Below, in pieces: positions 31,501 to 56,742 of a stretch of 64,000 nt of DNA (position 1 is the first letter of the stretch; each line of letters starts with the position of its first letter). Where the stretch lies: assembly GCA_903813345.2 (NCBI GenBank), contig CAIIXF020000001.1, forward strand, positions 17,236,001 through 17,300,000, in the 5' to 3' direction. Under the pieces are notes generated by a model. The model was not told the DNA's origin. It made no database searches and worked only from the letters and a program-made list of their open reading frames with translations. The DNA is from Owenia fusiformis. Its lineage: Eukaryota. The position numbers were made by a program, and so were the translations under genes.

Positions 31501-34500
31501 TGGATCACAATATAGCAATGGATCAATGTGTTTAACAGTTACATGCATTTTGCTATGAAGAATATTGACTGTACTTTTGTATTTTTTATTAGTTGGACTT
31601 GGCGAGACATGCATAGATGACGCCGCTTGCACAGGCACAGTACAAGGCTCACTGTGTGATATAAACTCGGTGTGTGTTTGTGATAGGGTCGGCCATTTTA
31701 TTGACGATTCAAATGGTGGATGCGTTTGTGATGCAGCAAATCAATTTGTCTCCGATGGAGGCGACCTTTGCGTTTGTGATGCAGCGAAAAATTTCGCAGA
31801 TGATGGAAATGGTGGATGTGCATGTGATGCTGCTGGAAATTACGTAGATGATGGCAATGGAGTATGTGTGTGTGATGAGGCTAATGGCTTTGGGTTACGA
31901 GACGACGCTTGTAGTAAGTAATATTTATAAACTGGTAATGATTCCGGATACGAAATGGCTGAACACTTGAAAGTTGTATTTTGTTGTTCATAAGTATTCT
32001 TTGTATAAATCTTAAAGGACCCGTGTTAAGTTTGAAATATAGTTTAGTCATTCAAGTATCATTTTTCATGATTTAAAAAACTAAACTTGAAATTTTTTAA
32101 CTTTTATAAATTGATGACTTTCCCGCCATTTTAGAAACAAAAAGTTAAGATTTTAAGATCATCAAATCAGAGACATAAACAAAAAGTTCTTCAAAATCAT
32201 CATAAAAACAACAAAAAAACATCGGAACAGATGAACTAATTTAACACATCAACCGTTGAGTTATCCAACTATCCAATATTGCCCCTTTTGTGTTAACTTC
32301 AGAATTAAAAGTTGATATTGACGGGGACTGCTCTGATCCCACCACTACGTTCTGTTCTGATCCCAATTCCAACTGTGATGGCACATCTTCAAAATGTGCC
32401 TGCAATGCCGATTATGAAAACAAAGAGGGCGTATGTAGTAAGTATAGCCTACACCTTGATTTTATACTTTTCAATTCAACTAGGACTCGTCATGAGACGA
32501 TATTCCGAGACTATGACCTTTTTATTTAAGCCTTTGTAAAAAGAGTTTCGTACTTAAAAGAGAGCGTTTCTCTACTCTAGGAGGATAATGCTCGGTTTTC
32601 CCTGAGACTTACCCCGGGAGACTAACATGATCATGGTCTCAGGTTTTACCTAGGATGAAGAATCCTAGGTTTACCTATTCCTAGGTTTACCTATAGTAAC
32701 ATGCATTGATCAGTGACTTATTTATCCACCAGAGAGGAGTGTTGCCATCGGAGGAGATTGTTCAGATACTACAACGTTTTGTGTTGATGCGAACAGCAAC
32801 TGTGACAACCAGAACACCTGTGAATGTAACACACAATACGAACCTAAAGACGATGTTTGCAGTAAGTGTAGCATCCGAAATTATAATTGCGATAATGTAC
32901 AGGCCCGTAGCCAGATTTTGCCAAAGGGGCGGGGATTTTTTTTAGAAATATCCCGGGGTTCAAATTTGACAATTTCGATCCAAAATCACTCGAAAAGTGC
33001 TTAAAATAGTAAAGATCAATTTGACCAGGGAGGGCTCGAACCACCCGAACACCACCTGGGTACAGGCCTAATGTAGCATAGTGATAGTATCACAGTCGAA
33101 AAGCCACGGGTAATAACGCAGAAAAACACATATAATATAAAACTCGATGAAATATACGACTGAAAATAAACAGTGCAAGAAGCAAACTACATCTAGTAAA
33201 ACATACAGCAAACGAAAAATTCAAAATTTAAATCCGGACCTGTCTTCATGCAACTGAATATCGTTTTATCAGAGTTGAGAGTGGTAGCTGGAGGGAATTG
33301 TTCAGATGCGGCCACCACATTCTGCGTTGATGCCAATAGTAACTGTGACGGTACAGCATGTGTATGCAATGCTGATTGGGTGAACAGAAATAGCATATGC
33401 AGTAAGTGTATAAGACGATTGCTCAAACTTTATATCAAAGGGTAAATTAAATAACAATACTTCTGATAATCCTGTATTGTTACTCTGATGCAGATCTGCT
33501 TGCTTTGACATGGATCATTGCTTGGATTTCATATATATCGGGTGTCCCAAAAAGTGAATCGCTTTTTGTCAAGTATTCTCTCAGCTGTAGATGAGCCTAA
33601 TTATTTGAAAATTTTTACTAAGGAACTATAGTGTATCATTAGCAAGTGCTATAGATATGTAAGAGATGGGTTGCATATTATGCGAGTGTTCTCAAATCAA
33701 AAACACCCACCATGTCAAAATATTAGAAGATATCAAAACATGCCAATAAATGGAAAATCATTACTTAAGTCTGAAAGAAGCTGTTTTCAAGCAGAAATGG
33801 TTTTGTATATTTTTCCATCCCATGACACAATCATTCCGTCCTTTAATATATGCCTATTGGATTTTATGCAATTTTGTTCATAAGTCTATTTATAGTAAAA
33901 TGACTGTAATTCTTGCCCATAATTCCTTGATGATTCATATTCCACCCAAACCGTTCACCTTGAAACAGTTTTCAATAGTTGCCTCATCGCTTATCGCTTA
34001 AAAGTCTTTTTTTGTCCATCCCTCCAAACTGAAATTTTGGAATAAAACGTAATGAAACGTAATATGGAAACAGAGAACACTAGTGAACCAATTCAATAAA
34101 CCTGACACACAGATAAGCTGTTTTTGAGACTAAAAACTGATTGACAGATTGTATCACCTGATAGCATGCACAAATGCTATGACGTATGAAGGACTCATTG
34201 CGCAGTTCTAATGTTGGATTTTTTTGTGACATGCAGTTTTGAATTTGTCAATTCTCACATAAATATGTAACCGATCTCTTACATATTGATACAACTTGCT
34301 AATGATACCCTAAGGCTACAGCAGAGAGCAGATATTACTCTCTTGTTATTTCTAGCGACAAGTAATGGTACATGGCGTTTTCCGATTTTTTTCAGAGGAA
34401 GATAAGGCAGTTGGAACTGAATGTAACACAGTTACATCATATTGTGTCGATGGTAACTCATCGTGTTCAGATGATGGAACGGGCACATCAAAATGTCTAT

Positions 34501-37500
34501 GTAACGATGGATGGGATCAAAGAGCAGACGGCCAAGGAGGATTTCTTTGTCGTAAGAAATTTGACAAGAAAGCATGAAAATTATTTGCAATTGTGTTCTT
34601 GAAATGCTCTGAGAATTTCTGAATGAGAGAACAAGATTTATAACTTCTCAAAAGTGTATATAAATTATAGTCCAAAGTTGTGCTCAAACTGTGCGCTACT
34701 CCTCAAACACATTAGGGAGATTTCGCAACTCACTTATAGCATGTTTATTATACGGAAATAATAAATATGCTATAAGTGAGTTGCGAAATCTCCCTAACAT
34801 CATGTTTATTATACGGGAATAATAAATATGCTATAAGTGAGTTGCGAAATCTCCATAACTCTAGAACTATGTCGAATGTTATCGGGAATGACGTGAGTTA
34901 TAATAAGTGAGTTACGAAATCTCTCTAATGTTATATATCGTCGTTATAATAATATTATCTTCTTTGTTTATTAGAGGTACCAAAGCAGCATGGTGAAGCA
35001 TGTGACACTGGCAATGCACCCTTTGACTACTGTGTCAATGACAATGCTTTATGTGACTCAGTAAATGCTAAATGTGTATGTGACAGTGCAAATTCATGGG
35101 AATGGAGGCCTGCTGCCAAAAAGTGTCGTAAGTCTTACATACAGTAGTGAGTAGAGGCTATCAAACTTTTCAGAAAGATCTCGGTTAGGCTAAAATCTCC
35201 TATTTAAGATCTAAACCCCCAGTTTTAACCATTTAGAATTGATAACAAAGTCATATTACCAAGTAACATAATTTTTCTGTTTATGACTCATCCAATGTTC
35301 TTCTGAGATAATGAGGATTTCAGCAAGGTTCTATCAGGATATCATCATATCGAAAAGGTCAAGGCTTCGAACAAAAGATATACGTTTAAAAAATATCAGA
35401 TACAGACTAGATAAAACATGAAATTAATGAGAGCCTTTTTTATGTTTATATTTTATACTTCATATTACGCAATATTGTTAGTCTATTGGATATTTAGAAA
35501 TAGCATTTTAAAAGCACTTAAAATACACCGTTCACAATTTTCTCAGCCCCAACCAGTAGAAACATGTTACTGGGCATATCTAAATCGTCAATTCTAATAG
35601 TTTAGAATAAGGGTTCTTAAACAGGAGATCTCACTTGGTTTTCCAAAGCTTTGGGTTACATCTAACAACCTGGTTGTTTTGAGAGGGCTGGCTGCTTAGT
35701 TTCAGTAACATTTCTGAATTTGAAATGAAATATTGAAGTCGGACTTATATGATGTTACTTATGATTGTTTTTATTGTGATTGCGTGCCATATTTCGTTTT
35801 GTCTGCATGTGATCTCGAATACCCAAATAGGCTAACGGGAGATAGACGTAATGATCATAAAAAGATGGCAGTACAATCAACACATGTGCACGTTGCTTCG
35901 TTGATGTTTAACATATGAAGTACAGTGCTGCCATCTTTATATTGGCCTAAAATCCGTGTGTATATGTAATGGTTGTTGGGTGTATACTTTCTGGCTGATC
36001 TTGAATTCCATTGTCTTATTTTATGGTCTCTAGAACAACCTAAACTTGTTGGTGAGGCGTGTGATAAGAATACTTCTTACTGTACTGACTCTTTCGCAAA
36101 GTGTGGGGATATAACTAGCTCTGGTTCTGATTCCTGCGAGTGTGATGAGGTAAACCTTTGGTTTTCAAAGGACGAGGCTGGTGTCATTGTGTGTAGTAAG
36201 TATTGCTATATTGATTCTTACTGGGATTCTCGTCAACTGATATTCTTTTGTATCTATTAGACACACTTAAAATGATAACTTATTCCCAATAGCCAATACC
36301 AGGTGTCTCAAATGTTATTACTTGAATTAAATCTTCAGTCTGTCCCTTAATGATTTTCTAATATGATAAGGAGATTGTCAATTGTTTTTATCTAGCACCT
36401 CCTTTAAAGTCCATATTATGAAAAATAACTCATTTTCATTTAGTTTTCCCAATTTGGTTAAATATTTTATATTTGATTATTTTCTTACTTCTGATACTTT
36501 CACCGTTCCAATGTTTTACTAAAATCTTGTCCAAGTATATTATTTTTCTCATGAAATGAAAAATAGAATAAATGCACCCCGATGCGACATACGGTATGTT
36601 TATTATGGCTTTATAAATCTATGTTGTAGAGAGGAGAACATTTGTTGGGAAGATATGTGATGAAAAGTTGAGTTTTTGTGATGACACAAATTCATTATGT
36701 AAAGATGACGGCTGGGGTAGTAGTGTCAATCGATGTATTTGCAAAGAGGAGTACCTAGCTGTAAAAGCTGATAATGGCACATATCAATGCGGTAAGAAAG
36801 CAATAGGACGTTATTCTATAAAGGTCGTTTTTAAGATGACATTGCATAAGTGAAAACTAGATCATATGCTTTGATATTTGGAATGATGACATACCTTTTC
36901 ATGTGTTTTATTTGTAGCTCTGAAAATTACTGGAGATAGTTGCCGTCAATGCGAAGACAACCTAGGTCAGTGTTACGATACAGATGGTGATGAGCAGCGA
37001 GATGGGTGTGTTTGTCCTTCGTCAAGGTCCGGAGATGACTGCACGATATCTCACGGTATATCTGTTTACCCATGATCTCTTACGGTTTAGTTTATATTAA
37101 AGAATATACCAAATGTATTTTCAAGTGCAAGGAAAGTGCTAAAGATATTTTGTCCCGAGGATTGTTGTCTCAATTCGCTCTACCACCCACGTAACTAAAA
37201 AGAAGTCAGATAAAAATTTTGAGGACAAACGACAAACCATGTGCCGGGATAGTGCATATAAAAATCGAGTCTCAATCCCCTTTCTTAGGCATTATTGGTC
37301 CAAGAATATTTCACTTCATTCAATAGCTGCTGTTTGGCAGCGAAGAGGATATGTTCTGAGGGGACTCATACTCAATTTTTATACATGTTTCCGGGCCTAT
37401 GCGACAAACCATTTGATCCGAACTATAGTATATCAGTCTGTATGTTGACCTTGCAGTCAGTGTAAAGTGTACGAGGGACAGCATGAGTGTATGTTACAAG

Positions 37501-40500
37501 CCCCATGAAGGAATTGATTTCTCCGGAGGAGCCTCGGTAGGAGCAACGATGTATCCTTATGGCTACAAGACAATAGAATGCTTGGCTATACCAGCATCTG
37601 GAGGTGACGAATGCGAAGATGGGAATCAACTTTTAAAGATTTCTATCAAAGATGTAGACCTGGCTAGATGTGGAATAAAAGTTCTTAATGAAGTAAGGGT
37701 TTGCAATTGACTCTAATTACTAAAGTAGTCCGTCAGTTAAAATCATTATCCAGACTGACCTATAGAAAGCTATATAATGAGTTTTATCTATTTTAGCCTG
37801 GACTGAAGAAATATGAGACTCTTATTGTGGTCCAAAGAAATCCAAACTCAATAGATTCGAATGATATATCCTTCCGCACTTACTGCACGTTCGATGACGT
37901 AAAGCAGTTGTCTTTTGAAGGAATAGGAGTCCTTGGGTAGGCTAAATAAATACTATATATATAGGGTACAACATGCGTGCATGTGCACGTACAGCTTAAA
38001 CTGAAAATAATTCCAAATGCAAAACTTAAGATAATTCATTGATTATAATTCCATAATCACTATTTAATTTAAAGTTGAATTTTTATTATTTTGCATTTAT
38101 GCTTCTTTCATGTTATCTCAATTCGAAAAAATGATTTAATAAGTTGGATTCATGTATGTGTGGTATTTATTTTAGAGTGCCTGGTAATTCCAACGGCGAT
38201 CATCTTGAAGCAGATATCCGCTTGTCGGTTGTTAATGCCCTCGGTCAAGAAATTCCAACGGGAGTAGCTCTTCGACTTGGCGATAGCATTGAGCTAGTAA
38301 TGTCTTTAGCTGATGATGGTTCGTTGAGTATCATTTTCAAAAAAATTCTTAAATTCAAGCCTAGATAACATCCGTTTTTTCAACACATTGATCGTGACTG
38401 CTATCTCACTCTCGCACTGTGCCGAATCACTAGAAGTTTTATGACAACTCTTTGTTTAAAAGGGGGATAGTGTAAAATATTTTGCCTTAATTTTTTTTAT
38501 TTTGTTTTCAAAGGTACCTATGGATCTATGAAGGTAGAGCGATGTACAATCTCAAGTGAATCAGAAATGCCCAGTACATCGGCTGTAACTATTCCAGTCA
38601 TCACAGATGGGTACATACATTTGCGTTATTTATTTTTATATCACCACTAACAAATGGTGATATCATGTTGTAGTAACCCATTTTTGCAACCGACATGCTG
38701 CATCGACAGTTTGCCAGTCGGCACATGCGACGTTACACTCTTGTGAGCATTTTTAAGTGTTTAATTGATGTATTCTTAAAACTCTTCTTAAATCATCCAC
38801 AATTCATTGAGTCTTGATTTCAATCATAGACATGGACTTCACTTTCATATTTCACTTTTTTCACTTTCATATTTCAGTAAAGCAGATGAATACCTTATTG
38901 TTTATTTGACATTGTAGGTGTCCAACTGATAATCAAGATCATATCACCAATGAAAATACATTCAAAAGAATAGAGGGATCCACTCATTACTTGAAAACAG
39001 GTCCCATCGAAGTGTTTAAACCAAGCAGAGGGACGTCTAGTTATGTTCATTGCACCGTAAAACTGTGTCTCACTAAGAATGAAGAACAATGTAAAATGGT
39101 AAAGTCAATGTTCTTATCAATTACTAACCATCTTCATAAATAAGAAAAAATATTTGCAGCCCGATTTATCTTCTTTAAAAGTAAACTTCATCTACCTAGT
39201 ATAATACAGGGTGGTCCAAAAAATGGGACACTCATATTTAAAAAATAAATATTGATTTTCTTGATGAAAACATGTCATATAATATACCGGTGCATAGGGA
39301 ATTCACTTATCTTTCATTTGGTATATCATAAATCGAAAATTTATTATAATATCTGTCAACCAGCGTCCATAATATAAATTATGTCATTTTCGTTTCAAAA
39401 CAGGTTTTCAAAAACTTGCAAAAATCAGTTTTTATCAACTTTATTTACATAAACAGATGTCCAAAATGTCCACCATTTTGATCAATTATACCCCTCAATT
39501 TTGGCCTAAACTGGTCAAGGGATCATTAATCTGCTGTTGAGACAATGAATTCCACTTCTCAACAATTCTATTCTTTATAATGGCTAGATGGGAGGGGTCC
39601 ATGGTACACTGATGCTTTTAGTTCTCCCAATGCGTGGTAGTCGCAAGAGTTGACACCGGATGATCCAATTATGTTGTTTTTATCATCCATTACATTTTCC
39701 AACAAGATGGAGCTCCAAGCCATAGATCCCACAAGTCTTTAAAGGAAAATGTGCCTAGATTCGCCCCCTCAATCACTGCCTCCGCCACACTCGATTCGAC
39801 TACCACTAATTGGGAGAACTAACAGAATTGGTGTACCATGAATCCTTTACATCTGTTCAGTCCCTAATGGCACAGTTATTGAGAAGTGAAATTAATTGTC
39901 TCAACAGCATATCAATGATGCTATCCGATTGACCAGTTTAGGCCAAAATTGAGGGCTATAATTGATCAAAATGGTGGAAAAAAATGGTCTGTTTATGTAA
40001 ATAAAGTTGACAATAAAACTTGGTTTGGAAAACCCGTTTTGAAACGAAAATGATGTCATTTATATTATGGACGCTGGTTGACAGACATTACAATAGATCT
40101 GAACATATGATATACCAAATTAAAGATTAGTAGATTCCCTATCGACTGGTATATATTATGACATGTTTTGATAAATGAAATCAATATTTATTTTTGAAAT
40201 ACGAGTGTCCCAATTTTTGGACCACCCTGTAGTATTATTCTCGTATATTATAGACGACCTGTCCAGCAAAGTCAGGCGGCAATCGGAGAAAACGTGCAGT
40301 TGATAGTGCTAGCGCAACTGTTAAAGTTGGTTGGAAGGTATTCGGAGAGGGAATCGCAGATGGAAACACAGGTAAAATACAAATATTTTTTCTTAAAGTA
40401 ACTTTCTGTAGATTGAGTGAGTAATTTATTACCACGCAGGACACTTCTGCACTTGTTTCAATTCAATTAAAAAGTGTAGGCTAGATGGATGTCGGCATTA

Positions 40501-40836
40501 TTTACACATGCATTTTTCTTTACAGATAATACCGTAGATACCCCTGTGAATACTGGAACAACCCCAGTCGTTGTGGGTGCCATATGTGGCGTCTTGCTCG
40601 TATGCTTAGCTGCCATACTGGTCCTTGGTGCTATTGCAAATAGGAGGCGTAAACGCAAAGCAGTGGACGCCATGGAATTGAAGACTACCGCGAGTTCGGG
40701 GGCAATTCCGGAAAAACCCGAGCCACAAGTTGTAGCATATGACAACCATGCTATGACTCCAATTGTCAAAATTCACCGACATCGAATTAACGACACACGG
40801 ATCAATCCTGAGAGTTTGGCATACAAGGATTTTTAA
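28529..40836 (+). CDS. Type-I membrane protein with tandem EB/EGF-like Cys-rich modules and a zona pellucida (ZP) module, 929 aa
   Basis: Exons 28529-28607 (signal peptide MEVFSHVHTLLSFLLAVLFLVDSVSS), 31593-31913, 32303-32437, 32733-32861, 33273-33401, 34396-34551, 34975-35127, 36034-36195, 36630-36791, 36918-37055 (EGF), 37457-37692, 37797-37936 (ZP-N, VKCTRDSMSV), 38176-38318, 38514-38610, 38918-39098 (ZP-C, DGCP and HCTVKLC), 40254-40371 (RRKR, VKVGWKVF), 40526-40836 (TM plus RRRKRK). Total 2790 nt, in frame. The donor at 38318 could instead be 38327. Confidence 0.88.
28727..29441. mobile_element. Tc1/mariner-type MITE
   Basis: TA|CAGGGTGGTCCAAAAAAGTGAAC ... GTTCACTTTTTTGGACCACCCTG|TA; imperfect TIR extends to about 48 bp. 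Confidence 0.9.
29715..30004. repeat. Foldback inverted repeat with about 110-bp arms and an internal partial direct copy
   Basis: GTACATTGGAGTAAGCACACCCTATTACAC... (about 29731) pairs with ...GTGTAATAGGGTGTGCTTACTCCAATGTAC (to about 29987). ACAACAAATCGGTGTACATTGGAGTA recurs at about 29845-29870. Confidence 0.75.
32900..33069. mobile_element. Small hAT-like MITE
   Basis: AGGCCCGTAGCCAG pairs with CTGGGTACAGGCCT. TAATGTA occurs at both junctions, consistent with an eroded 7-8 bp TSD. Confidence 0.55.
33538..34310. mobile_element. Degenerate Tc1/mariner-like MITE, right end lost
   Basis: Starts CGGGTGTCCCAAAAAGTG. About 33631-33679 is the imperfect reverse complement of about 34262-34308. Confidence 0.45.
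34712..34929. repeat. 40-bp-stem hairpin plus two further partial copies
   Basis: TTAGGGAGATTTCGCAACTCACTTATAGCATGTTTATTAT-ACGGAA-ATAATAAATATGCTATAAGTGAGTTGCGAAATCTCCCTAA (34712-34797). The right arm recurs at about 34820-34858 and about 34903-34929. Confidence 0.85.
39207..40229. mobile_element. Palindromic non-autonomous Tc1/mariner element with about 440-bp arms derived from the transposase 3' end
   Basis: TA|CAGGGTGGTCCAAAAA ... TTTTTGGACCACCCTG|TA. Arms pair inward to about 39645 and 39795. Remnants FQQDGAPSH (about 39697-39723, +) and VNSCDYHALGELKASVY...DQFRPKLRGIIDQNGGHF (left arm, -). Confidence 0.9.
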
Positions 40837-42699: not shown

Positions 42700-44549
42700 T
42701 ATATAAACGATGATATGTAGACTAAAGATCTGTTGTTTATTTATTTATGGATTCCTATTGTCATAATATTAAGCAATTCTAAATGCTCACAACTCATGAT
42801 TTTCGGATGATTTATCGACCTAAGGTCACCTAAACTAGGTACAATGTACCTATAGGCAATTAATTATGGCAATCAATATCTAGTCTAAACTAGGTAAAAT
42901 ATATTTAATTCGATCGGGTCATCATTTTGCAGCTGCTTATGCCAAAAATTAAGTATATTTAATATCGGGTAAAAAATGATGAAGAAATAAGCTTGACCCT
43001 AACGAAAAAAAAATCCGCAAAAAATAATCAAAATGCACTGGCAACTATTGGAAACGTTTGGTATTTTTTATTATTTTATTATAATCCAAATGCATATTGG
43101 AACCCAAATATTTAACGCTACAACATAGATTACGAATTCAAACTATATATTTGCAATGTTTACGTGTTTCATTGTTGATTGTATTAAAAAAATGAATACC
43201 CTCAAAGGCCCCATGTTAAATCCTCCAAATATTTTTTTCATGAACTGTGAAAAATCGTTTGAGACATGTTTTGAAAAAGTTGACTTTCGAAAAAAGATGT
43301 TAGCTACTCTTGAAATCCAGCCATTTCAGAATTTCAGATTAGACTGTAAAACACATTATTTCCAACACTCCATACGAAAGATCAAGTTGAAGTTTCACAT
43401 AATATACATTTTGATAACATTTGGTAACATTACGATTAAAGTCAACGTAGCTTAACCTTTTCCAGAGGCCTTAATTAAATAAGCACGTCTGATTTTCACG
43501 TCTTGAAACCATGGGAGCCTATGGTGAACCGGGATGGAAACATAAATAGTATACAATTTTAAAAGCTGGGAAGGTAAAAGCGCTTAAATTTCAAGCGCAC
43601 AAGTACTCCACACATGTGGAATAAAAAATGATGCATCGAGGTCTTACCATTTTTTGCAGATTGTTATCTCATTTCAACGCAAAGTTGATTTCATGTCCTA
43701 TTTCATTACACGATGGGATGAGAGTTGAGAAATTAAACATAAGGTAAATGTAAGAACATTTTTTCAAATTTATTATGTTTAAAACATATTTACATTGTGT
43801 ACAATATAAGTCGACAAGATGTTCAAAATATGTACCATTATATGTAATAGTATTTAGGATTGTATGGAAAGGCTGCACATTTAAATCAGTGAAGTTGATA
43901 CAGTAAAGTTGATACCACCCTGTAAATATGACAGTTGGAAATATTGCTCACGTACATGCATGAAGCAAGTGAATGCTTAACCTTAAAATGATAAAATGTT
44001 GCAAGCACCTTTTTCATTTTTACACTTTACTGGACCTGTATGAGTATTATATTTTTCAAGCTTTTTTACCGATTCATAAAGAACATAAGAAAGTTTATCC
44101 GGGTCAGTTGATGATGCAAGTTCGATGGCTGTTTAAACATTTGGAAATCATTGGATCATATTTAATCGATGGAAAGACTGATGTCAGTCCCGTCGTCACT
44201 AATTAGAAATCTGCTTCAAGTACTGACGCAGGTTTAGAAACTTATACTCCATAAATATTAATTACGAAGACATCGACAACATGTTATCCTATCTACATAT
44301 ATTCGAGTGTTATTTTAACAAATATATAGATTTTTACAGCTACAAATTCAAAATAATATATAATACTATGTAGTTTACATCCTATATACAGATTACTTTG
44401 GTATGTAATTCGCCCATGTTGTTTGATTCAAAATTTCTCTAGGGTCAATTTCATTAAAACATTCCTCCTTGAATAAAGTAGACCATTTTAACACGTACTG
44501 ACCATTATACAGGTAAATAAAATGACCTAGTTTTTCAACAATTATGTCG

Positions 44550-47500
44550 TCACATTATGGGTATCTCATAATAATAAAAATTATTTTGTTTCACAAGGTT
44601 TCCTCCTTCCTCATATCTTTTGGAATTAAGTTCACATATGCTAGTTACTACTTCGTCGCTTAAAGTGTGAACCTTATAAGATTCACCAGCAGTCTTGACC
44701 GTTTTGATTTTGCCCTTTGAGGGCTTTTTTGATGGGTCTTTGGAATTTTTAGAATTTTCGGACCCTGATTTCTCAAAGTTGAAAGATTTGCAGCCCTCTT
44801 GTGTTATGCACTCCATTGCACACTGTATTGTATCTTCTTTCATAGTTGTCCTGATTACAGAGCCTACAAGTCGATTATCTCTCTCTCCGGCACGGAATTC
44901 TCCATATCGTTCTCTATCACCCCGGAACACTGCAAAATTATTTGATGCATTATATTTTGTGAATAAAGTGACTGTGATATTTGGCTCAGCTCAAATTTCA
45001 TATATTTCTTTGAAATAACTTGAAAGAGATAATGCTACACATGATTAAAGCAATTTGCAGATATAACATATCATTCGAAATTGTATATTAACACATAGTT
45101 ATGCAAGTATTATCACTTTCTGGTCAGTCAGAACACAAAATACCAGCCACTCTATATAAAAGTACTAAGCAAAGTTAAATTAAGCAAAAACTTGACGCAA
45201 CGTGAAAATTATGAATGATACTATTTATGTTTGGGCAACGCCCGTGTTTTTGTTTTTTTCCCCATTTTGTGCGCGTTGACGAGCGTTGATGATTTTTTTC
45301 AACGTTCAAGGAACGCTCCAGCAACGTCCGGGCGGTGTGACCGGGCCTTTATATGCGTGTCAAGTGTAAGGAGTTATTTCCGATTTGAACCCTGGGCATT
45401 ACACTTACGAGTGCATACAGGTTTATGATTATCCCATCGAACGGAGTTCGGAGGAATATAGGGAACGCCTACGTCCGTCCGTCCAGGCGATCACTCAAAT
45501 AACGTCGACCTGATTTTGTTCATATTTTGTACACATATACCCTATGGGGGTAGAAGTTCTGCTCGAAAGTCGATTTTCAAAATGGCCGCTCGTTTAAAAA
45601 TGGCGGCCATTTTAGTGGTGCCGACTAAGTAATTTAGGTACAATATATAAATTGTAATTAGTAATATGTTTTAAATTCAAAAAGTAATATAGGACATTAA
45701 TAAAGCTAGAAATGTCGATATTTAAGAAACACATGACAGCCATCTTAAAGATATGGCAGCCGTTTTTACATGCTATTTTACGATTTTTGCTGTAACTTGA
45801 ACAGTAGTGGAGCGATTTCGTTCATATTTGAGCATGGTACACTGTCAAGTGACACTTTGGGCAAAAGGTGGCCATTTTTGAAAAGTGGCTTCTATTTTTA
45901 CGTGTATTATTTTACGTTTTTAACTCGAAAAATGGCAGAGCGGGCGACGTGTGTCATTTTGCGTTTTTTACGATAATTCAAAATGTAATAGAGCGTTTTT
46001 GTTTGATATGCGAATACTCACACACTGTCTTATGACACTTTGGCTAGAAGGCGGCCATTTTTTAAGTGGTTGCGATTTTGTTGAGATTTCATATGTGCCT
46101 GCTTAGAAGCATATTATCTGATGGCTAGTGAGCGACCATTTTGTTATTTGTGTTTATATGCTATTTTACGATTTTTGCTATAACTGAAAAAGTGGTAGAA
46201 GGACGCTTTGGCGTTAATGTTTTCTGGTTGAATTTGAATTACTTTAAAAAAATTAATAAGTCAAGGACTGTCACAAATCAGTATTAGCCTAAAGCATATT
46301 GATTCGTGCTTAATTTTTGTCAGACAAAAAGGTACCGTCCCAACAGACCCCCTTTTCTGCCCCCATCAGAATCAAACTTATTTTGCAACGTTTTCATTTC
46401 CAAATGTTGTATAGGTCTGCATGTCATCACGAAAATACAATGCTATACGAGGGGACTTCTGGGACAACCCTCGTATATACTGCTATATGAAAACTTTACA
46501 TGCCAGTAGATGTCTGCTACAGGTTTTCCTTATTTTCTTCATATGATTTTTAGAGAATCAAAAAAGATTCCTCCTTTTATAAAATATAATGTCTTGATTA
46601 ATAGATACACTCGCAAGGAGTATATTAAGCAGGAATCAAAGATAAAAACCATTTATTTCCTGTCTCAATAGGGACACATTTAACAACAACCTTACACACG
46701 GATAATACATTATATCGTAAAGATTAATGGTGAACCCTTCACTCTGACATCATTTGTTTATTAACCCAGATATTGTACATCTCACTGCACAAAGCCATAA
46801 ACTTTAGGATTTATAGAATTGATGCTGAGCTTAGATGATTAGATTCTATTATACTGATGTTTAGGTAGCGTCCAATAAATATCAATAATTAAAGGAAATT
46901 GATAATCTAGCGATATCAGTTGATCAAAGTGCAGGGGTGTATATAATGATTGTGTTTACGCTAGGAAACAATTAACGATTGTGTTTAATTATTATTCCTA
47001 TGTTTTTCCATTCTCCTGGTGTGTGTGTGAAAAAAAGAACAATTGACAAAAATTCTGAATTTATTTCATGTATTCTCTCAGACACATTTAAGGTGCCCAG
47101 ACTTCATCAAATAGCACCTTTGTATGGTCAATGTATATGGGGACAAGCACTTGCTCCCCCTCTGGCACCCCAGCCCTACTCCTCACCCCCCCACAAAACA
47201 ATTGGGAATGTTTGGAAGTTGCATTTGTTAATTTTAAACACTTTAAAAGTGCCCAGAAATCACCAAGTGACATAATGAAATCATAAATAATTCTGACACA
47301 GCATCCCAAAAACTAAAGCATTCATTTACTCAAACAAACACATTAAAAGTGCTCAGTTAGTAAAATTTCCTGTGCTGCCCACTCGCTCCTCTAAGAAGAA
47401 AATGATTAAGAAATCAGAGTTTCTTTAAATTGATTCTATTGCCTTCTAGCACACCCTCCCTATTCCAATGTTTCTCCAAATTGCTCATACAAGATTTAGT

Positions 47501-48038
47501 CTAAAAACAATAAAATACTACAAAATAGGCTGAGTGGCCTTAATATAGAGAGTAACTGACTCCCAACTGACTCCCCTCTGACTTACGCGATTTGATTTAC
47601 GCGGAAAAAATGACAATTTTATTTTCTCTTTATTAAAAACCGCACCCCCTTAGAGAAAAATGTCTTACGGGCCTATCTCTCCTGTGTCATTTATTTTATT
47701 TCCGACGTTCTATAATTCATTCCAGTTCGATCATTTATAATTGGAAATTGACAGCTTAATATTAAGAAAATTGGTCAATAACAGGGTTTTAATACGAAAA
47801 AATGTGTAATTTAGCAATGTAAACAAACGGAAGGAAATAGAAAACTCACATTTGCATTTGCCGTAATCACATTTTACGGTTTCATAGTCATTTCCTTTGC
47901 AGTTAGCTTTTGTCTTTCCACTTTTTCCTATTTCAGTTACCGATGGGCAATCCCGAGTTCGAGTCCGCTTTCCTTTGCCACATGTTCTCGTACAAGCACT
48001 CCAACTGCCCCATTCCCCCCAGTTGTCTTTGGCATTGT
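44550..48038 (-). CDS. TSP1 (thrombospondin type 1) exon plus PAN/apple-domain terminal exon; probably the 3' part of the Ly6-repeat gene, or a separate gene starting at 48090
   Basis: Exon 48038-47850 encodes WGEWGSWSACTRTCGKGKRTRTRDC (phase 1-1, donor GTGAGT). Exon 44929-44550 encodes CAMECITQEGCKSFNF...CELN...YYE and ends in TGA. Phases match. Confidence 0.85.
45428..46200 (+). mobile_element. Helentron-associated (HINE/DINE-1-like) non-autonomous element
   Basis: 5' TTATCCCATCGGAACGGAGTTCGGAGGAATATAG with a short inverted repeat, then a (GTCC)n microsatellite at about 45473-45485 and degenerate internal repeats (AAAATGGCCGC/GCGGCCATTTT; ATGCTATTTTACGATTTTTGCT twice). The 3' end is not defined. 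Confidence 0.5.
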
Positions 48039-48479
48039 CTGAAAGTACCAAGAAAGACAGTGGAATGGCCAGTAGTAGAATTCTAGTCATCTTCAGATCT
48101 ATCTAATTATCGCACTGGTCAACCTATGGCTTTTAAATACACTCTACTATACCTAACCCCTAGAAATGCATAAGATACTCTGTTTGTCTAATTGTATTGT
48201 TAAGTATATTTTTGAACGAACCTTATTAACATTCTAGCAGGCATCCAATAAACTATTAATAAGGAACAGAAAAATAAAAAAAATAACAAAATCATTATTA
48301 TAAGCCAAATAGTGGAGACAATTACGGCAATAAAACTCTAGAATATTGCACAATGCACATACTAGCACCATTTTTTGACATAAGTATCACTAATACATAT
48401 ATTTTCGATATCTAACAAAGTGGTGTTGAAAAGTGGCCCCATTTGATAATAGCAGGCATTGAAAATTGTGGACATTTAC

Positions 48480-49806
48480 ATTGAGCTCCATGTTAATTTA
48501 TCAATCTTCAAAATATCCCCTGATAAACAGTTTTAGATTAATAAAGCCAATATTTTCAGGATGTTACAATAACATGATTATCTTCAAAATAAGAAGGGTT
48601 ACATTTTTTCTTTTACCTAGTTCCAAAGATATTTGCGTTTGAATTTTTGAACTTCCCCATTGGCTGCCACTATATAAACGGCTATCAATATGGTTTTACT
48701 AAAGCATCTTTTTCTCTTAGCCGTTAAAAACTATAAAAGACCTATTTTGAGCCGCATGTTAAATTATCTATCATCAAAAGACCCCCTGCAGAACAGTTTT
48801 AGAGTAATCATGCCAATTCTCCTAGTATGTTGCAATAACATGATTATCCTCAAAATAAGAAGGGCAAATTTTTTTCTTTTACCTAGTTCCAAAGATATTT
48901 GAGTTTGGATTTTGGAAATTCCCCATTGGATGCCATTATAAACGGCTATCAATATGGCTTTACTGAGGTGTCTTTTTCTCAAAAATTCCAAGGTGAAATG
49001 TTCTAGTATTGCAGATTTCTATAGTTAATATATTGATTTAAAAAGAATCAAACAGGTACATTTCTGAAAATTTATTATTTTCGTTATATTTAGCCGTTAA
49101 AAACTATAAAAGACATAATTATCTTCAAAATAAAAATCAAAATCTTTTTGTTTTACCAAGTTCCAAAGATATTTGAATTTGAATTTTGGAAATTCCCCAT
49201 TGGCTGCCATTATTAACGGCTAACAATATGGCTTTTCTAAAGTTTCTTTTTCTCAAAAATTCCACGGTGAAATTCTCTAGAATTGCAGATTTCTATCGTT
49301 AATATATTGAATTGATAAAAATATATTGAGCCCCATGTTAATTTATCAATCTTCAAAAGATCTTTTGCAGAACAGTTTTAGAGTAATAATGACCATTCTC
49401 CGAGTATGTTACAATAACATGAATATCTTCAAAATAGGAAGGGCTGACTTTTTTCTTTTACCTAGTTCCAAAGATATTTGCGTTTGAATAATCCTATTGG
49501 TTGCCATTATAGACCGCTATAAATATGGCTTTACTATAATAGAGTGTCCTTTTCTCAAAAAGTCAACTATGGAATTTTCTAATATTGTATATTCCATTGT
49601 TAATATATTGATTATTTGAAATCAAACAGCTACTTTTCTGAAAATTTCTTATTTTAAACATGATTAGCCATTAAGTTAAAGATTGACAAATTAACATGCG
49701 GCACAATATGTTTTTTATAGTTTTAACAGCTAGATATATTTAAAATAAGAATTTTTCAGAAATGTGCTTGTTTGATTTTTTAAAATCAATATATTAACTA
49801 TAGAAA
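48480..49806. repeat. Irregular tandem array of about 270-300-bp units (4 copies) ending in an inverted copy
   Basis: Core TTTTACC(T/A)AGTTCCAAAGATATTTG...CCCCATTGGxTGCCA occurs at about 48611, 48877, 49151 and 49456. About 49680-49806 is an inverted copy of unit segments. Confidence 0.8.
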
Positions 49807-52676
49807 TCATGCATGTACAATTGAACACTTATCTGACTCCACTAAAATGGGTTGCTCATGAACACTAAATGCAAGGTATAGTAGAGTGAAATACCTCGCC
49901 GTGGCTTTTTATTTATCGGGGGCAAGCAGAAATGTAATTTACAATTCATCCATTAACGAAGAACTTCCCGTGAATTTAATGACCAAGATTCAATTAACTA
50001 TACATATTTGTAATGTTTTGGAAGGGTTTTAATTATGAGTCCTTCATCGCAGTAAAAACCATATTCTACTTCCCGAAAGCTCATCATACGATATCTTGTA
50101 TTACCATATATTTATTCAAATTACATTTTACCATAAACTGAAGTAGATTGTGCATTATGCTAATAACAGCGGATACCTTATTTTTCTTATTATATGAGAA
50201 CAATTAGGATTTGACGCATAGATGTTAAAGGCCTGTAGAGAGAAAATTTGATTTTTTAAACTTTTTCTGAGCTATCAGGGCAACATTTGGCTTAACATCT
50301 TCTTTGACATACCTATTTTCTTAAAATGTATGGATAGACTATCAATTTCAGCGTTAAAAAGCTTAAATTCATTTCAAAGCTTCTATAAAGGGAGTCCCAC
50401 TTATAGATTTTTAAGATCCACCTCGTTTCAAGAGGAATATCAGGGTTTCTTTGGGAAATAATAATAAATATCCAAACTTGTATATTTTGACACTGGTCCA
50501 TGATCGTTGAATGGCCCCTCTGCACTAATTATTGCACTTTTAAATATGAAAAACCCTCAACGAATCTGACCAAATAAAATGTACAAATCCAATATGCATG
50601 TACTTAGCGATATGCCATACTGTTAAACCAGTCATGTCAACAGTGAACAAGATGGCGATATGTACAGATGTTTTGTTTTAGTATTTTGTGTTAGGTATTT
50701 TAAGTTATGTCAGGATTTTTAAGTTATGTCAGGTATCTCAAGTCCAAAAATAAAGATAGTGAGTAATTTTGGAATTTTTCTTCTCCAAGTAAAATATTCC
50801 GCAGCCAGGTCTACGAAGCTTTAAAAGAGATATTTTTAAAAAAATTTGTTTTTTCACATCTCAACAAAATACTTATCTAAAATCGTTAATAAACAGGATG
50901 TTACATCGTATCATTTAGACATGATTCAGAATCTACGGTGAGTTTTGCACCGATCCTACTGTTAAACCAGCAGTAGTCCTTCCATGCTCCAGGAGACATC
51001 AAACAAATATCTCTGGTTGCATGAATAATGCCAGGGCAGGTGATTTTCTAAATCCTATGATCAAAATGCCATAATGCTATACAACCGTCGTTAATCTATA
51101 TCAAAGAATAATGTTATTCCCTTGATTATTTCCCTATCCGCCTCGCCATTGAAAGTAAAAGTGAGAGGATAACAGAGGTATTATATGGCTTTTATCTGAA
51201 GCACTTAAGGTATATTTGTATGATGAGAATACTTTGTTCAAATCAAAACATTTGCGATAAAATTTTGAAATGACATTGCCATGACATTGACATTGCAATA
51301 AGTCTCGGCCCGAGTTTTGGTTTTCAGCTTTTTTATGAAGTGCGGAACTGCTTCAGAATTACTTCTTATATTCACGCCTTTAAGAATTAAGTTTACTTAT
51401 TATTCACATGCACATCTTCAATATCTGCACAATCAGAGAAGATATGAATTAGGAATCTTAAAGAAATCTGAGGATATCTATATCCATACTACATTAATCA
51501 AAATAATGTTGATTAATATTGAAAATTTAAGGCCCATAATTTGATAATGTGCCTAAAATAAAAAAATAAGGCCTAAAAAGGCCAAGTAATGCCAAAAAGG
51601 CCAATTTATTGAGGTCCCTCAAAGGTTTTGAGCCCACATATATTTCTTGGCCAACCCTAGGAGGAGGGGGTAAAGTAGAAAATTTCCAGATTTGCACGTT
51701 AAATTTTCTGCCCGATTCTTTCGCTTAGAGTACACAGGAAATTTACTGTAACTTTGATATTTGCCACGTCAAAGTACACAAATCTTTAATATTGGGTTAT
51801 TCACAAAAATCAATACATTTTTATGTATTAACCAGCGGATTTAATCCCGAGAAAAAAATTGCCTCATTTTCCAGACCTGTGAAAGAATAATTAAATACCA
51901 TTCAATAATTTAATGATAAAAAATCGCCAATGCTTCTTGATAATCTACATGAGCGAAACTTCAGGTGTTATTCAGTTATTCGTCATAATTAGCAATTAAA
52001 TTCTAGATACCGTTCCGATCAATTCTTCTTGATAATAATGTAGTTTCGAACTTAAAATATTTTATCCAAAATGTTCCATCAAATCTTTCTTGGATCGTTA
52101 TATCCTACTCTATAATATTATATTGATTATGCAAGGCTGTCAACCTTCCGTTTGTCATCTTATACCAAAATTGTTGTTTGAAATGGAAATCTCTGCTATT
52201 GACTCCTGAGTTCTGTTTAGGTTGAAAGGAAATTCATAATCAATGTAAATATGAAAAGAATCAATAGGAATGCAATCAAAAGATACATATAAATATCAAG
52301 AAAAAAGATGAATGAGGCATAATGAGAAAACCGACTTATTAGCATATATAATCCTTTAACAATATGCCTTTAAATTTTCCATTCGTCATAAAGATAACAC
52401 ACGTACAAAGAATCACGGTAGAGATGAACGTAACTGTGAAAATATTGTTGTTGTTTTTGATTTGACCCGTTCTGATTGATCCATCGTCTGACGTCAAGAA
52501 AATAAAATACGCTATTTTTGAAGCATAGGATGAATACGTTAATGGGATTTGGGAAATAGAATATAACAGTCAACACTCTATAGAATAGCTGACTTCCTTA
52601 CAAAATAAGATAAAATTCAAATAAATTAATACATCATGTAAGTATGTTAATAACCATATTTGCCCACCTTGGTTAC

Positions 52677-55600
52677 CTTTACCACTTTCTTTGCCCTTTC
52701 CATTTTCTTTTTTGGAAACATCGTCGTCTTTGGTTGATTTATCCTCAGATTTGTCTCCTTTACCTTTACTTTTGTCGTCGTTTTCGTCCTCAGTGGATTT
52801 ATCTTTAGAATAGCCACCTTTACTTTTGTCATCATCTTTGTCCTCAGTCGATTTATCTCCAGACTTATCCCATTTATGTTTACCTTTGTCGTCATCCTCG
52901 TCCTTAGACGATTTTTCATCAGGCTTGACATTTTTACTTTTACTTTTGTCGTCATCTTTGTCCTTAGGCGATTTATCTTCAGACTTGTCCCCTTTACCTT
53001 TACTTTTGTCATCATCTTCATCTTCAGGCGATTTATCAGGCTTTACCCCTTTACCTTTACTTTTGTTGTCATCTTCGTCCTTAGACGATTTATCTTGAGA
53101 CTTTTCTCCTTTACCTTTATAGTCATCTTCGACCTTAGTAGATGTATCTTCTGACTTGTCCCCTTTACCTATACTTTTGTCATCATCTTCATCTTCGATG
53201 GATTTATCTTTAGACTTGTCCCCGTGGCCTTTGTCTTTGTCGTCATCTTCGTCCTTAGACGATTCATCTTCAGACTTGTCCCCTTTACCTTTACTCTTGT
53301 CGTCATCTTCGTCCTCCGCCGATTTATCTTTAGCCTTTTCCCCCTTGTCTTTACTTTTGTCGACATCTTTGTCCTTAGACGATTTATCTTCCGACTTGTC
53401 CCCTTTACCTTTACCCTTGTCGTCATCTTTGTCCTCCGTCGATTTATCTTTAGCCTTTTCCCCCTTGTCTTTACTTTTGTCGACATCTTTGTCCTTAGAC
53501 GATTTATCTCCAGACTTGTCCCCTTTACTTTCAGTTTTGTCGTCCTCTTTGTCCTCGGTCGATTTATCTTCAGACTTATCGCCTTTGTCTTTACTTTTGA
53601 CGTCATCTTTTTCCTCGGTCGATTTAACTTTAGACTTGTCCCCTTTACCTTTACTTTTGTCGTCCTCTTTGTCCTCGGTCGATTTATCTTCAGACTTGTC
53701 GCCTTTGTCTTTACTCTTGTCGTCATCTTTGTCCTCGGTTGATTTATCTTTGGACTTGTCGCCTTTACCTTCACTTGTGTCGTCCTCTTTGTCCTCGGTC
53801 GATTTATCTTTAGCCTTTTCCCCATTGTCTTTGCTTTTGTCGTCATCTTTGTCCTTCGACGATTTATCTTCGGACTTGTCCCCTTTGTCTTTACTTTTAT
53901 CATCATCTTTGTCCATAGACAATTTATCTTCGGACTTGTCCCCTTTACCTTTACTTTTTTCGTCACCTTTGTGCTCAGTCGATTTATCTTTAGACTTGTC
54001 CCCTTTGTCTTTAATTTTGTCATCATCTTCGTCCTTCGACGATTTATCTTTACCTTCATCTTCGGACTTGTCCCCTTTACCCTTACCTTTGTCATCGTCT
54101 TTGTCCCCAGTCGATTTATCTTTAGACTCGTCCTCTTTGTCTTTACTCTTGTCGTCATCTTCGTCCTTCGACAATGATTTAACTTTCGACTTTGCACCTC
54201 TTTTTATCCGTTTCGTTTCGGTAACACTTCCAAATTCTTCATGTTGTTCATTTTCTGTTTTCGAAAAACGATTCAAAGTCCCATTTTGCATAGTTCTGTC
54301 AAAGTTTAATTGAACATTTCTGTGAGCGTTAGACATCTGGGTAGGGTTAGAGTCATCGTTGTTACATAGAGCTTTGGAGCAACATATAAGTTTGTTAATA
54401 TTTTTTTCTGGACACTTCTTTAGGGGAATGCAACCCTTCCACACAATAAACGCATCATTATCGGAGTTTCTTATTGAGCCACAAACCTGTAAATATAATC
54501 AATATTATAATTACCAAGGTGCCAGGTAACACACGAACAAAATAATCGTCACTCATGGTTAGATTTCGTACTTTTGTTTTGTTATAGCTATTTATAAGAT
54601 ATTATAGATTATCTCTTGGATGAAAATTTTCTCTTTTTTCAAACTTGATATAACATATGTAACATAAAGAATCGACTATACTATCCCCAGGCTTAATCCA
54701 TTAGTTCTTATAATTCAAAATGACGAATAAAAGACGTGGGTGTATGTAAGGCTAAATGAGGTCAATAAGAAAATGTTATAATTGACCTGTTCTTAGTGTT
54801 GATTGTTTACTTAAACATTGTATCATTCCACTTTGGAAAGATACTTCATTAGACTTAAACTTGATTCAGGTATATTGATTACAGTGATATGTACCATTGT
54901 ATTATATGAACAATGAGTTTTAAAATAAGTCTAAATATGCTTTAAAACATGTTGTTTGAATTTGCCAAAAAGGTTCAATTGAATTTCATTGACATGCTCT
55001 TAAAAGGGTTTATGATGAAAATGGCTTGATAATATTCTTCTGTCCCGACAATGTATAATTTATGACAACATTGTTCAAATTAAATGTTCCCATAATTGGG
55101 TATACAACCTAATTTACTTTTCTGTCATCGAAGAATCACCGAGGGAAATGATCGTTAATGTTTATTGTTAAGGAGTACAAGTACATGTATAATGAGCAAG
55201 AGATGTCTCTTCTCTAGCTACAATGTCTAAAATTCTTTTTTTAATAAAATTAAATCCGTTGAAATGCAAAGAAATATCATTAAAAGACCATGTGCAGTAT
55301 GGTAAGTGATTTTAGATGGTCATATCTTTCACCATGAGTACTTTCTGGGCATAAACACAGTGGGTTTTATTAAAACAATATGTTTTATTTCAAGTGAAGT
55401 ACCCATGATGATAAAAATATCAATTGAAGAATTCGAAAAATTATGAATAGGGACACCATGTCAATTTTTTTTTCTAAATATTGAACCTATTTACTCAAAA
55501 GAGGATCTTCTTTTTATATTTTTATTGCATGAAAAGATCATTCAACAAGGAGTCTAAAACATCTTCAAATATAGAATGGTATTGAAAGTCTAGTTTGGAA

Positions 55601-56742
55601 GATATCAATTTTCGATGACCAAAATTATGCACAAAACAATGGATAGCGCGAGTTTTTTCCCTATGGGCAAATAACATGGGATATGTGGTTTTTAACTTTC
55701 GCATTTCAATACCCATCCCCTTTTCAGAAATTGTTAATTTAGTGTAGAGGAGATTTTTGATATGTTTAAATTGAGAAAAACAAGATTCTCTTTTTAGACA
55801 ATGAGCCTAACATTCTTAAAAAAGTGCCAAAGGTGAGGTCCTAATCAATAATTTTTCAAAGAGTTAGAATGATATTTTACTATCATGGGCCGGGGACTTA
55901 ACTTGAAAGAAAACATATTGTTTTAATAAAAACAACTGTATTGATGGCCAGAAAGTACTCATGGTGAAAGATACTGTATGATCATCTAAAATCAATTGCC
56001 AAATTGCACATGGACCTTTAATCAAAATACACGTGTTTATATTGTATGAGTGTATGTTGGTGTTGGTTGGGATCATGACCATCTAGTCCATGCCGTTGGG
56101 GAAAGCGGTATGGAAAAAGATGGGATAACGGTCCAACAGAAGTAAAAGAGGCTTGTGGGTCATGAAGGTGTCACTACGGTAAATAGCACTTCCGGGTATG
56201 ACAGTGTTTTTTAATACTTTAAAAACAAAGCCATGGCAAATCCAGTTGTGTATATAGTAAGTTAATGTGTATGTATAGTGAGATATTTGAGGTATTTATG
56301 TAAGTCTAGGTCAAGTACTTTCTAAATTTAAACTTGAAACTTGAATTTTGTGAATTTTTCAATGAATTATCGTAGTGACACCTTAAGTCGTAAAGAGGTC
56401 AGATATAGCATTAGTATATAAAATTTCAATCACCTCATTTTTGTCGCACACCATTGTCATCATTTGTCCATCATTGCACTCTAGTTCACTCTGGCATGCA
56501 AAACATTCTAGCGTAAAAACTAAAAAACAACAGCATTGAATTAGGGGAACGCTAGATACAAATGTATATATATCAAATTATCAAAAATCAGAGAAAGCTA
56601 AAGACAGAACACGAGTTATGATAATTTTGAACAAACCAATATGTAATTATATTCTAAACTGAAAAATAATGCAAACGTTTTTCATACCTTTGTTTAAATT
56701 TAATGCCATTATAACAGCAGCAAAGATCCAATGGTAATCCAT
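52677..56742 (-). CDS. Secreted protein: signal peptide, Ly6/uPAR (three-finger) domain, RIKR site and long Asp/Lys/Glu/Ser/Gly repeat
   Basis: Exons 56742-56688 (MDYHWIFAAVIMALNLNK), 56519-56434 (VFTLECFACQSELEC...VCDKNE) and 54486-52677 (VCGS...KGCIPLKKCP...ICCSKALCN, then repeats). There are 10 Cys, from LxCxxC to CCxxxLCN. With the TSP1 and PAN exons the total is 2520 nt = 839 aa, in frame. Confidence 0.85.
52725..54170 (-). repeat. Coding minisatellite, 60-bp (20-aa) unit, about 24 copies
   Basis: Consecutive 60-nt lines from 53161 to 54000 align in register; consensus approximately DKSTEDKDDDKSKGKGDKSE. Confidence 0.95.
56167..56382. mobile_element. 216-bp Kolobok-like MITE
   Basis: 12-bp perfect TIR GGTGTCACTACG / CGTAGTGACACC with RR..YY ends. 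Flanked by TGAA on the left (probably mutated TTAA) and TTAA on the right. Confidence 0.65.

Follow-up and report, generated by a model that had tools for sequence, protein, structure and literature searches.

The 64,000-nucleotide stretch analysed here (hereafter the window) comes from Owenia fusiformis, assembly GCA_903813345.2, contig CAIIXF020000001.1, positions 17,236,001 to 17,300,000, and is AT-rich animal DNA with a GC content of 0.30-0.40. Between positions 56742 and 44550 of the window lie exons for a Ly6/uPAR (LU) three-finger domain, a long charged repeat, a thrombospondin type 1 (TSP1) repeat and a PAN domain, all on the minus strand; coordinates throughout are window positions. 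A sequence-only reading had joined these exons into one secreted mosaic protein. Our analysis instead favours two neighbouring genes over a single LU-repeat-TSP1-PAN protein, with a probability that we put at about 0.68. Gene A (56742-52570) is modelled with three coding exons and 685 residues. Gene B (48090-44550), on the same strand after a gap of 4.6 kb, is modelled with two exons and 220 residues, made up of a signal peptide, one TSP1 repeat and one PAN domain.

Gene A: three-finger domain, charged repeat and tail

The features of gene A, in the direction of transcription, are as follows.

56688..56742, minus strand, 55 nt: exon 1, with the ATG at 56742 and the signal peptide MDYHWIFAAVIMALNLNK
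56434..56519, minus strand, 86 nt: exon 2, N-terminal half of the LU domain (LxCxxC, Cys1-4)
54361..54486, minus strand: first part of exon 3, C-terminal half of the LU domain (Cys5-10, CCSKALCN)
54211..54360, minus strand: non-repetitive polar linker of 50 residues with one N-x-T sequon (NGT)
54199..54210, minus strand: RIKR, candidate proprotein-convertase site, the sole R-x-[KR]-R in exon 3
52669..54198, minus strand: Lys/Asp/Ser/Glu/Gly repeat of 510 residues without Arg, consensus unit KGDKSEDKSTEDKDDDKSKG, 60 nt, about 24 copies
52573..52668, minus strand: C-terminal tail GGQ-IWLLTYLHDVLIYLNFILFC-KEVSYSIEC, placed in an intron by the sequence-only reading
52600-52659, minus strand: hydrophobic segment of 20 residues within the tail, mean Kyte-Doolittle (KD) value 1.71, candidate transmembrane (TM) or glycosylphosphatidylinositol (GPI)-signal anchor
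52570..52572, minus strand: stop codon in the exon-3 frame

Exon 1 encodes a hydrophobic N-terminus, with a ten-residue KD maximum of 2.62, and ends at a phase-1 donor, AAG/GTATGA (the slash marks the splice junction). Exon 2, whose translation reads ..LECFACQSELECNDGQMMTMVCDKNE, lies between the acceptor TTTTTTAG/ and the phase-0 donor GAG/GTGATT. An intron of 1947 nt separates it from exon 3, which is translated from 54486 and begins with VCGSIRNSDNDAFIVWKGCIPLKKCPEKNINKLICCSKALCNN. When the exons are joined computationally, the cysteines of the LU domain fall at residues 24, 27, 33, 43, 49, 66, 72, 82, 83 and 88, giving the pattern LxCxxC...CCxxxxCN over a span of 68 residues, split at 56434/54486. 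The tenth cysteine (C88) is followed by Asn89, and the N-D that results leaves no N-x-S/T sequon at this position. In the three-finger fold the disulfides pair cysteines 1-5, 2-3, 4-6, 7-8 and 9-10.

The available text of a survey of the family (PMC6600238) defines the LU domain as 60-90 residues with ten plesiotypic cysteines, the last of them followed by an invariant, non-glycosylated Asn. In its account, a typical three-exon LU gene consists of a signal-sequence exon and two domain exons, with flanking phase-1 introns, and the GPI-anchoring signal lies in exon 3. Gene A as modelled has the archetypal three-exon LU layout, agreeing in cysteine count, in the Asn and in exon plan, and its exon 3 is presumably the terminal exon.

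Database searches were less specific about the domain. Pfam returned 0 families at E ≤ 10 for the two LU half-domains, queried separately and not as the joined domain, and phmmer against the PDB with the LU query gave one match, unrelated, at E 1.5. A language-model feature search of the Atlas with residues 1-50 of exon 3 returned clusters of the three-finger clan only (listed as cobra cytotoxin, the TGF-beta receptor II ectodomain, PATE2, SLURP1 and an activin receptor domain), with scores of 0.76-0.79 that lie below 0.9 and are a lead only. A methionine followed by a hydrophobic run (MSDDYFVRVLPGTLVIIILIIFT, from MSDDYF to IIFT, 54489-54557 on the minus strand) was considered as an alternative start and rejected, as it is in the wrong phase for the phase-0 acceptor of exon 3. 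This look-alike, just upstream of that acceptor, illustrates a background of about 1% of signal- or TM-like starts.

The RIKR motif stands at the boundary between linker and repeat, in a protein predicted to enter the secretory pathway, and matches the furin motif. Cleavage into a free LU peptide and a charged chain is therefore a reasonable prediction. The signal peptide, the ten-cysteine Ly6/uPAR domain and the RIKR site had all been named in the sequence-only reading, and all three stand.

Tandem Repeats Finder (TRF) places the array at 52736-54167, with period 60, 23.9 copies and 76% matches. The 510 residues after RIKR comprise 151 Lys, 135 Asp, 74 Ser, 50 Glu, 47 Gly and 0 Arg; 4.5% are hydrophobic, the fraction of charged residues is 0.66 and the net charge is −34 (−0.07 per residue). 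The charge-patterning parameter kappa is 0.088, compared with a mean of 0.125 (standard deviation 0.017, minimum 0.085) in 200 shuffled sequences, and the longest acidic and basic runs are 6 and 2 residues. With kappa below that of most shuffles and runs this short, the charges of the repeat are well mixed, not blocky. The repeat had been described earlier as alternating acidic and basic blocks with almost no hydrophobic residues; the copy number and the scarcity of hydrophobics are borne out, while the blocks prove very short (acidic at most 6, basic at most 2).

The repeat appears to behave as coding sequence in the Asp/Lys (D/K) frame. A crude ratio of nonsynonymous to synonymous differences (pN/pS) from the consensus, over 16 in-register units, was 0.38 in this frame and 0.58 and 0.77 in the other two, and exclusion of CpG sites left the result as before. 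In the same 16 units the differences from the consensus numbered 40, 19 and 50 at codon positions 1, 2 and 3; the commonest changes were G>A (27 of 109) and A>G (17 of 109). All changes in unit length keep the frame (24, 18, 19 and 18 residues). The array is also open in other reading frames. Consensus AAA Lys codons had changed to GAA seven times, to AAG five times and to AGA never, which, together with 0 Arg against 151 Lys, suggests selection against arginine in the predicted protein. An arginine amid the lysines would make extra convertase sites, and this may be the reason for its avoidance.

In the accessible part of PMC7503639, a kappa near 0 is associated with expanded chains and weak inter-chain attraction, and values of 0.1-0.3 are the most favourable to charge-driven phase separation. 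The kappa of 0.088 is close to the 0.1 boundary given there, so coacervation could still occur. Since a kappa near 0 means expanded, weakly attracting chains, an extended hydrated spacer would be the better-supported behaviour of the repeat than coacervation. A blocky charge pattern as the basis of self-coacervation was accordingly down-weighted, and the earlier proposal of a coacervate gains no support from charge patterning that is better mixed than random.

Sites with at least 7 of 9 matches to MAG/GTRAGT were counted as donor-like. Exon 3 contains 16 of them, between 52668 and 54087 on the minus strand, mostly AAG/GTAAAG. Each of them falls on a Gly GGT codon with a Lys AAA codon next, which puts all 16 in phase 1. 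Avoidance of cryptic donors is not apparent, GGT being the commonest Gly codon of the repeat (20 of 47). The best of the 16 is the first, at 54087; the site at 52677, from which the mosaic would be spliced, is the fifteenth. So many good donors would be tolerated most easily in a terminal exon, as there is no downstream acceptor for them to pair with.

Past 52677 the exon-3 frame remains open for 35 codons (..NQGGQ-IWLLTYLHDVLIYLNFILFC-KEVSYSIEC) and then stops. As a control, a comparable peptide follows 8 of 639 GGTR sites, three of which belong to this locus and one to the genuine TM exon at 40576; counting every GTR site in all three frames gives 120 of 9577 (1.25%). In a GPI signal, an omega site of small residues is followed by a brief polar spacer and by a hydrophobic stretch running to the C-terminus. 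In the tail of gene A, ...GKGNQGG is followed by one residue, the 20-residue segment (KD 1.71) and nine polar residues, an arrangement that would fit a TM segment with a short tail at least as well as a GPI signal. Pfam gave no match to the tail.

Gene B: start site, TSP1 and PAN

The features of gene B, again in the direction of transcription, are as follows.

48040..48090, minus strand: ATG and signal peptide MTRILLLAIPLSFLVLS, with the proposed acceptor 48038 at the end of the signal
47850..48039, minus strand: remainder of exon 1, TSP1 repeat (WGEWGSWSAC..CTRTCGKG), identified with Pfam
44550..44971, minus strand: exon 2, PAN domain and stop (44550-44552), identified with Pfam PAN_1 and homologues

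The 51 nt just upstream of 48038 encode ATG-MTRILLLAIPLSFLVLS, which is predicted to be the start codon and signal peptide ahead of TSP1. The ATG has an A at −3 and an in-frame stop five codons upstream. The window contains 419 acceptor-like sites (YYYNYAG); 4 of them have an upstream Met in frame and a hydrophobic 12-mer with a KD value of at least 2.0, and only the gene B site at 48038 reaches 2.87.

The TSP1 exon matches Pfam TSP_1 with 37.5 bits (cut-off 21.6; E 2.7e-9). It resembles TSP1-repeat proteins in carrying WxxWxxW and CxxTCxxG, which we take to be TSP1 motifs. A homologue search with this exon against longer proteins gave one match, an ADAMTS16-like protein from a clam. The phase-1 donor AAT/GTGAGT of exon 1 joins cleanly to the phase-1 acceptor ATCACAG/ of exon 2. 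The PAN exon scores 22.3 bits against Pfam PAN_1, which is marginal to the cut-off of 21.4, and has a Lys/Ser-rich loop insert of about 45 residues. A search of 1.84 billion representatives gave 11 homologues of this exon at E ≤ 1e-3 (P0002-P0012; best 1.5e-16). All 11 contain PAN_1 and none contains TSP1 or LU; in these secreted invertebrate PAN_1 proteins the partner domains are fibrinogen_C, CUB, AbfB and further PAN. The earlier assignment of both exons, to TSP1 and to PAN, is thus sustained by Pfam.

A single-sequence AlphaFold 2 (AF2) model of the PAN exon had a predicted local distance difference test (pLDDT) score of 39.9 and was discarded. At two positions a DNA run and a few RNA reads differ from the window: 48009, where Gly28 becomes Ser near the W-x-x-W (WGEWSSWS), and 47911, where the change is silent. 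These are probably allelic differences.

One protein or two genes

The two-gene model is favoured because it explains both the start and signal of gene B and the tail and stop of gene A, with the donor-like sites of the repeat tolerated. That gene A would be a gene of its own is supported by the match of its layout to the LU archetype in the available text of PMC6600238. The mosaic would be a single secreted precursor of 853 residues, with signal peptide, LU domain, RIKR, full repeat, TSP1 and PAN, and would require 52677 to be spliced to 48038. This join keeps the phase and leaves an open frame, its donor is AAG/GTAACC and its acceptor GTCTTTCTTGGTACTTTCAG/, the two sets of exons share a strand at a distance of only 4.6 kb, and of 20 minus-strand open reading frames (ORFs) scanned between them 0 scored above the Pfam cut-off. 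That the repeat and TSP1 exons are compatible in phase, as previously stated, is therefore correct, but the phase of 52677 is uninformative because all 16 donor-like sites share it. As one of 16 equivalents and not the strongest, 52677 would be used only if the 14 upstream of it were skipped, which is unlikely. Furthermore, the acceptor at 48038 cuts through a methionine and signal peptide, and exon 3 continues to a hydrophobic tail and stop. If the mosaic were real, the in-frame ATG-signal and the tail-stop would have arisen by chance, so that it needs two coincidences of about 1% each. We consider the mosaic unlikely, though it ranks first among the alternatives. The earlier suggestion of adhesive domains carried on the charged chain would fall with it: the TSP1 and PAN exons are most likely part of another gene downstream, which has a start and signal peptide of its own, and the charged chain most likely ends in the anchor-like hydrophobic tail.

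Published LU architectures bear on the same point. In the text available from PMC13719153, an invertebrate survey whose annelid part comprises 272 proteins from 5 genomes, only two architectures are described for annelids: LU-only proteins, for which a GPI site or a C-terminal TM helix is possible, and receptor kinases. No LU+TSP1 or LU+PAN architecture appears in that text, where 'thrombospondin' occurs 0 times, 'PAN' matches only PANTHER, and furin, linkers and disorder go unmentioned. The LU-repeat-TSP1-PAN architecture was found in no database protein in our homologue searches.

RNA evidence was taken from three raw RNA-seq runs of the same species (X12, X13 and X14), using 6-12 in 100 reads of each; joints were listed when supported by at least 3 reads, and 15 of 56 were seen. 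A further run, X1, had been guessed to be RNA, and was set aside when its roughly tenfold coverage of introns showed that it behaves as DNA. Over the PAN exon and its 3' flank (two bins, 43967-44900) depth was 0.96 and 0.86 in X14, 0.60 and 0.32 in X13, and 0 and 0.04 in X12. Over the 3' bins of exon 3 (52373-53306) it was 0.30 and 0.31 in X12, 0.06 and 0.27 in X13, and 0 in X14. The three bins from 53307 to 54707, covering the 5' two thirds of exon 3, had a depth of 0 in all three runs. For all reads of genes A and B the first mate lies on the plus strand, which is what minus-strand RNA would give in standard stranded libraries. The reciprocal pattern, with PAN reads and no exon-3 reads in X14 and the reverse in X12, counts against the mosaic and hints at separate transcripts, with very few reads in each case. 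Neither the 52677/48038 joint nor any junction of gene A or gene B is among the 15 of 56 joints listed, at depths of 0-0.3 on exon 3.

The zero depth over most of exon 3 also bears on an alternative in which the repeat is mostly intronic. Here an early donor such as 54087 or 54054 would be joined to a phase-1 acceptor, either 48038 or that of an unrecognised exon, to give an LU domain with a short charged tail, or else varied donors would give stalks of varied length. The 16 phase-1 donor-like sites, the first of them the strongest, are what such splicing would draw on. Set against this are the D/K frame with the lowest pN/pS, the frame-keeping indels and the 0 Arg among 151 basic residues, and the few exon-3 reads come from the tail or the 3' portion of the array (bins 52373-53306). 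We hold this to be improbable, below the mosaic. No more probable is a 'length dial', in which the repeat donors are spliced to 48038 and generate a family of LU-polyampholyte-TSP1-PAN proteins with variable stalks, beside stand-alone anchored LU and TSP1-PAN proteins; such a variable-stalk architecture goes unreported in the available text of the LU surveys (PMC6600238, PMC13719153). Lowest of all we place the case in which gene A is either secreted without an anchor, its tail being chance read-through, or a decaying or neutral minisatellite of little function. Its near-zero expression in the three RNA runs, the lack of relatives found, the imperfect tail and the openness of the array in other frames are all compatible with this. 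However, neither the LU framework (ten Cys and Asn) nor any splice site is damaged, the reading frame survives despite about 24% nucleotide divergence and at least 4 indels, and such a tail has a chance of about 1%.

Several observations weigh against the two-gene model. The tail, with a His-Asp and nine trailing polar residues, is no textbook TM segment or GPI signal, and AT-rich non-coding DNA yields hydrophobic peptides of this kind in about 1% of cases. The roughly 650 nt after the stop at 52570 contain no AATAAA; ATTAAA first occurs at 51914 and AATAAA at 51610. The sites at 52677 (AAG/GTAACC) and 48038 (TTTCAG/) are both acceptable splice sites with an open join. In the handful of reads available, neither the gene A end nor the gene B start is marked by a read or transcript. 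Finally, the searches found neither a homologue of gene A nor a TSP1-PAN orthologue that would confirm the gene models. With the whole of exon 3, 8000 candidates (proteins of 350-1117 residues) were scored and 0 reached E ≤ 1e-3; residues 1-96 of exon 3 gave 11 candidates, 0 at E ≤ 0.1; and the Atlas search with the whole exon gave no usable match. For no exon of either gene was a near-identical protein present in the collections searched, from which the locus seems to be absent. A literature search combining Owenia fusiformis and Ly6 found nothing, and the literature on Owenia tube cement, judged by its listings, held nothing on this protein.

Under the two-gene model, the following mechanism is proposed. 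It builds on what the sequence shows directly, namely the exons and their phases, the LU signature, the lone RIKR, the composition and patterning of the repeat, and the two hydrophobic signals. A 60-nt minisatellite may have expanded in frame within exon 3, between the LU domain and the hydrophobic tail, and the repeat sits where an in-frame expansion of an anchored LU protein's linker would place it. The product of gene A would be a 685-residue surface protein, either type I or GPI-anchored, in which the three-finger domain tips an expanded, strongly hydrated polyampholyte stalk of about 500 residues. A furin-type convertase may cut after RIKR, in which case the LU module and linker would be shed as a soluble ligand and the charged brush would stay on the cell. 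Gene B would give a small secreted TSP1-PAN protein of 220 residues.

If this is true, the mosaic disappears and is replaced by a linker between LU domain and anchor that has grown to 510 residues of Arg-free Lys/Asp/Ser polyampholyte. It would be a naturally occurring stalk that is long, strongly charged and well mixed, topped by one convertase site. The locus also carries a warning for gene modelling. Repeats rich in Gly GGT codons make phase-1 donor look-alikes, and the pyrimidine-rich codons of signal peptides make acceptor look-alikes; phase-compatible joins between neighbouring genes for secreted proteins therefore arise easily.

Surroundings of the locus and relation to known LU proteins

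Elsewhere in the window, on the plus strand, a C2H2 zinc-finger gene has a long Ser/Pro-rich exon that ends in the first finger (15844-16905) and a second exon with three fingers (25033-25323; zf-C2H2, 9.5e-21). Within the 8 kb between these exons, at 19552-22723, lie a Mutator-like transposase ORF of 559 residues (Pfam Mutator, 9.9e-16) and an antisense ORF of 237 residues. A series of Cys-rich exons at 31559-40836 (plus strand) has matches to the EB module and DUF5874 that are weak and below cut-off; its last exon, from 40576, encodes a clear TM helix and then RRRKRK. The series is probably one gene for a type-I membrane protein. High-copy repeats or transposons occupy 45368-45834, 48140-48280, 49845-50500 and 55175-56100, where word depth in the DNA run sums to as much as 77,000, compared with about 10 for unique sequence. 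They are transcribed from both strands in all three RNA runs and account for the bins of high RNA depth. An RNA joint from 48280 to 49845 suggests an element consensus without the 1.5 kb present in the window.

Three known systems offer comparisons with gene A. The first are the GPI- or TM-anchored proteins with a single LU domain (CD59, Ly6 and Lynx type), as described in the available sections of PMC6600238. Gene A is like them in being a three-exon gene whose signal exon precedes a phase-1 intron, and in having a split LU domain, ten Cys, an Asn after Cys10 and an anchor-like end to exon 3. It differs in adding about 560 residues before the tail (the 50-residue linker, RIKR and the 510-residue repeat), in the nine polar residues that trail the tail, and in having no detected sequence relative.

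GPIHBP1 is also membrane-anchored and also combines an LU domain with a highly charged disordered segment, which, in the parts available of PMC6600238, PMC4755760 and PMC5148603, contributes electrostatic steering to its partner. Its disordered part, however, is N-terminal, at most about 50 residues long, purely acidic and encoded by an extra exon (PMC6600238, available text), whereas the charged part of gene A follows the LU domain, extends over 510 residues, is of mixed charge (net −34) and lies within exon 3. According to the same available text, just two human LU proteins, SP-10/ACRV1 and GPIHBP1, have an exon that encodes a disordered N-terminal segment whose length varies. SP-10/ACRV1 resembles gene A in pairing an LU domain with a long, length-variable, low-complexity segment; as far as that text goes, it differs in that the segment precedes the LU domain and has another composition, and in being acrosomal and without a membrane tail. 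The gene A extension would, if the two-gene model is true, be a C-terminal counterpart to those of GPIHBP1 and SP-10, its closest analogues. The best reading of the predicted gene A is thus an orphan form of a known LU type rather than a new mosaic.

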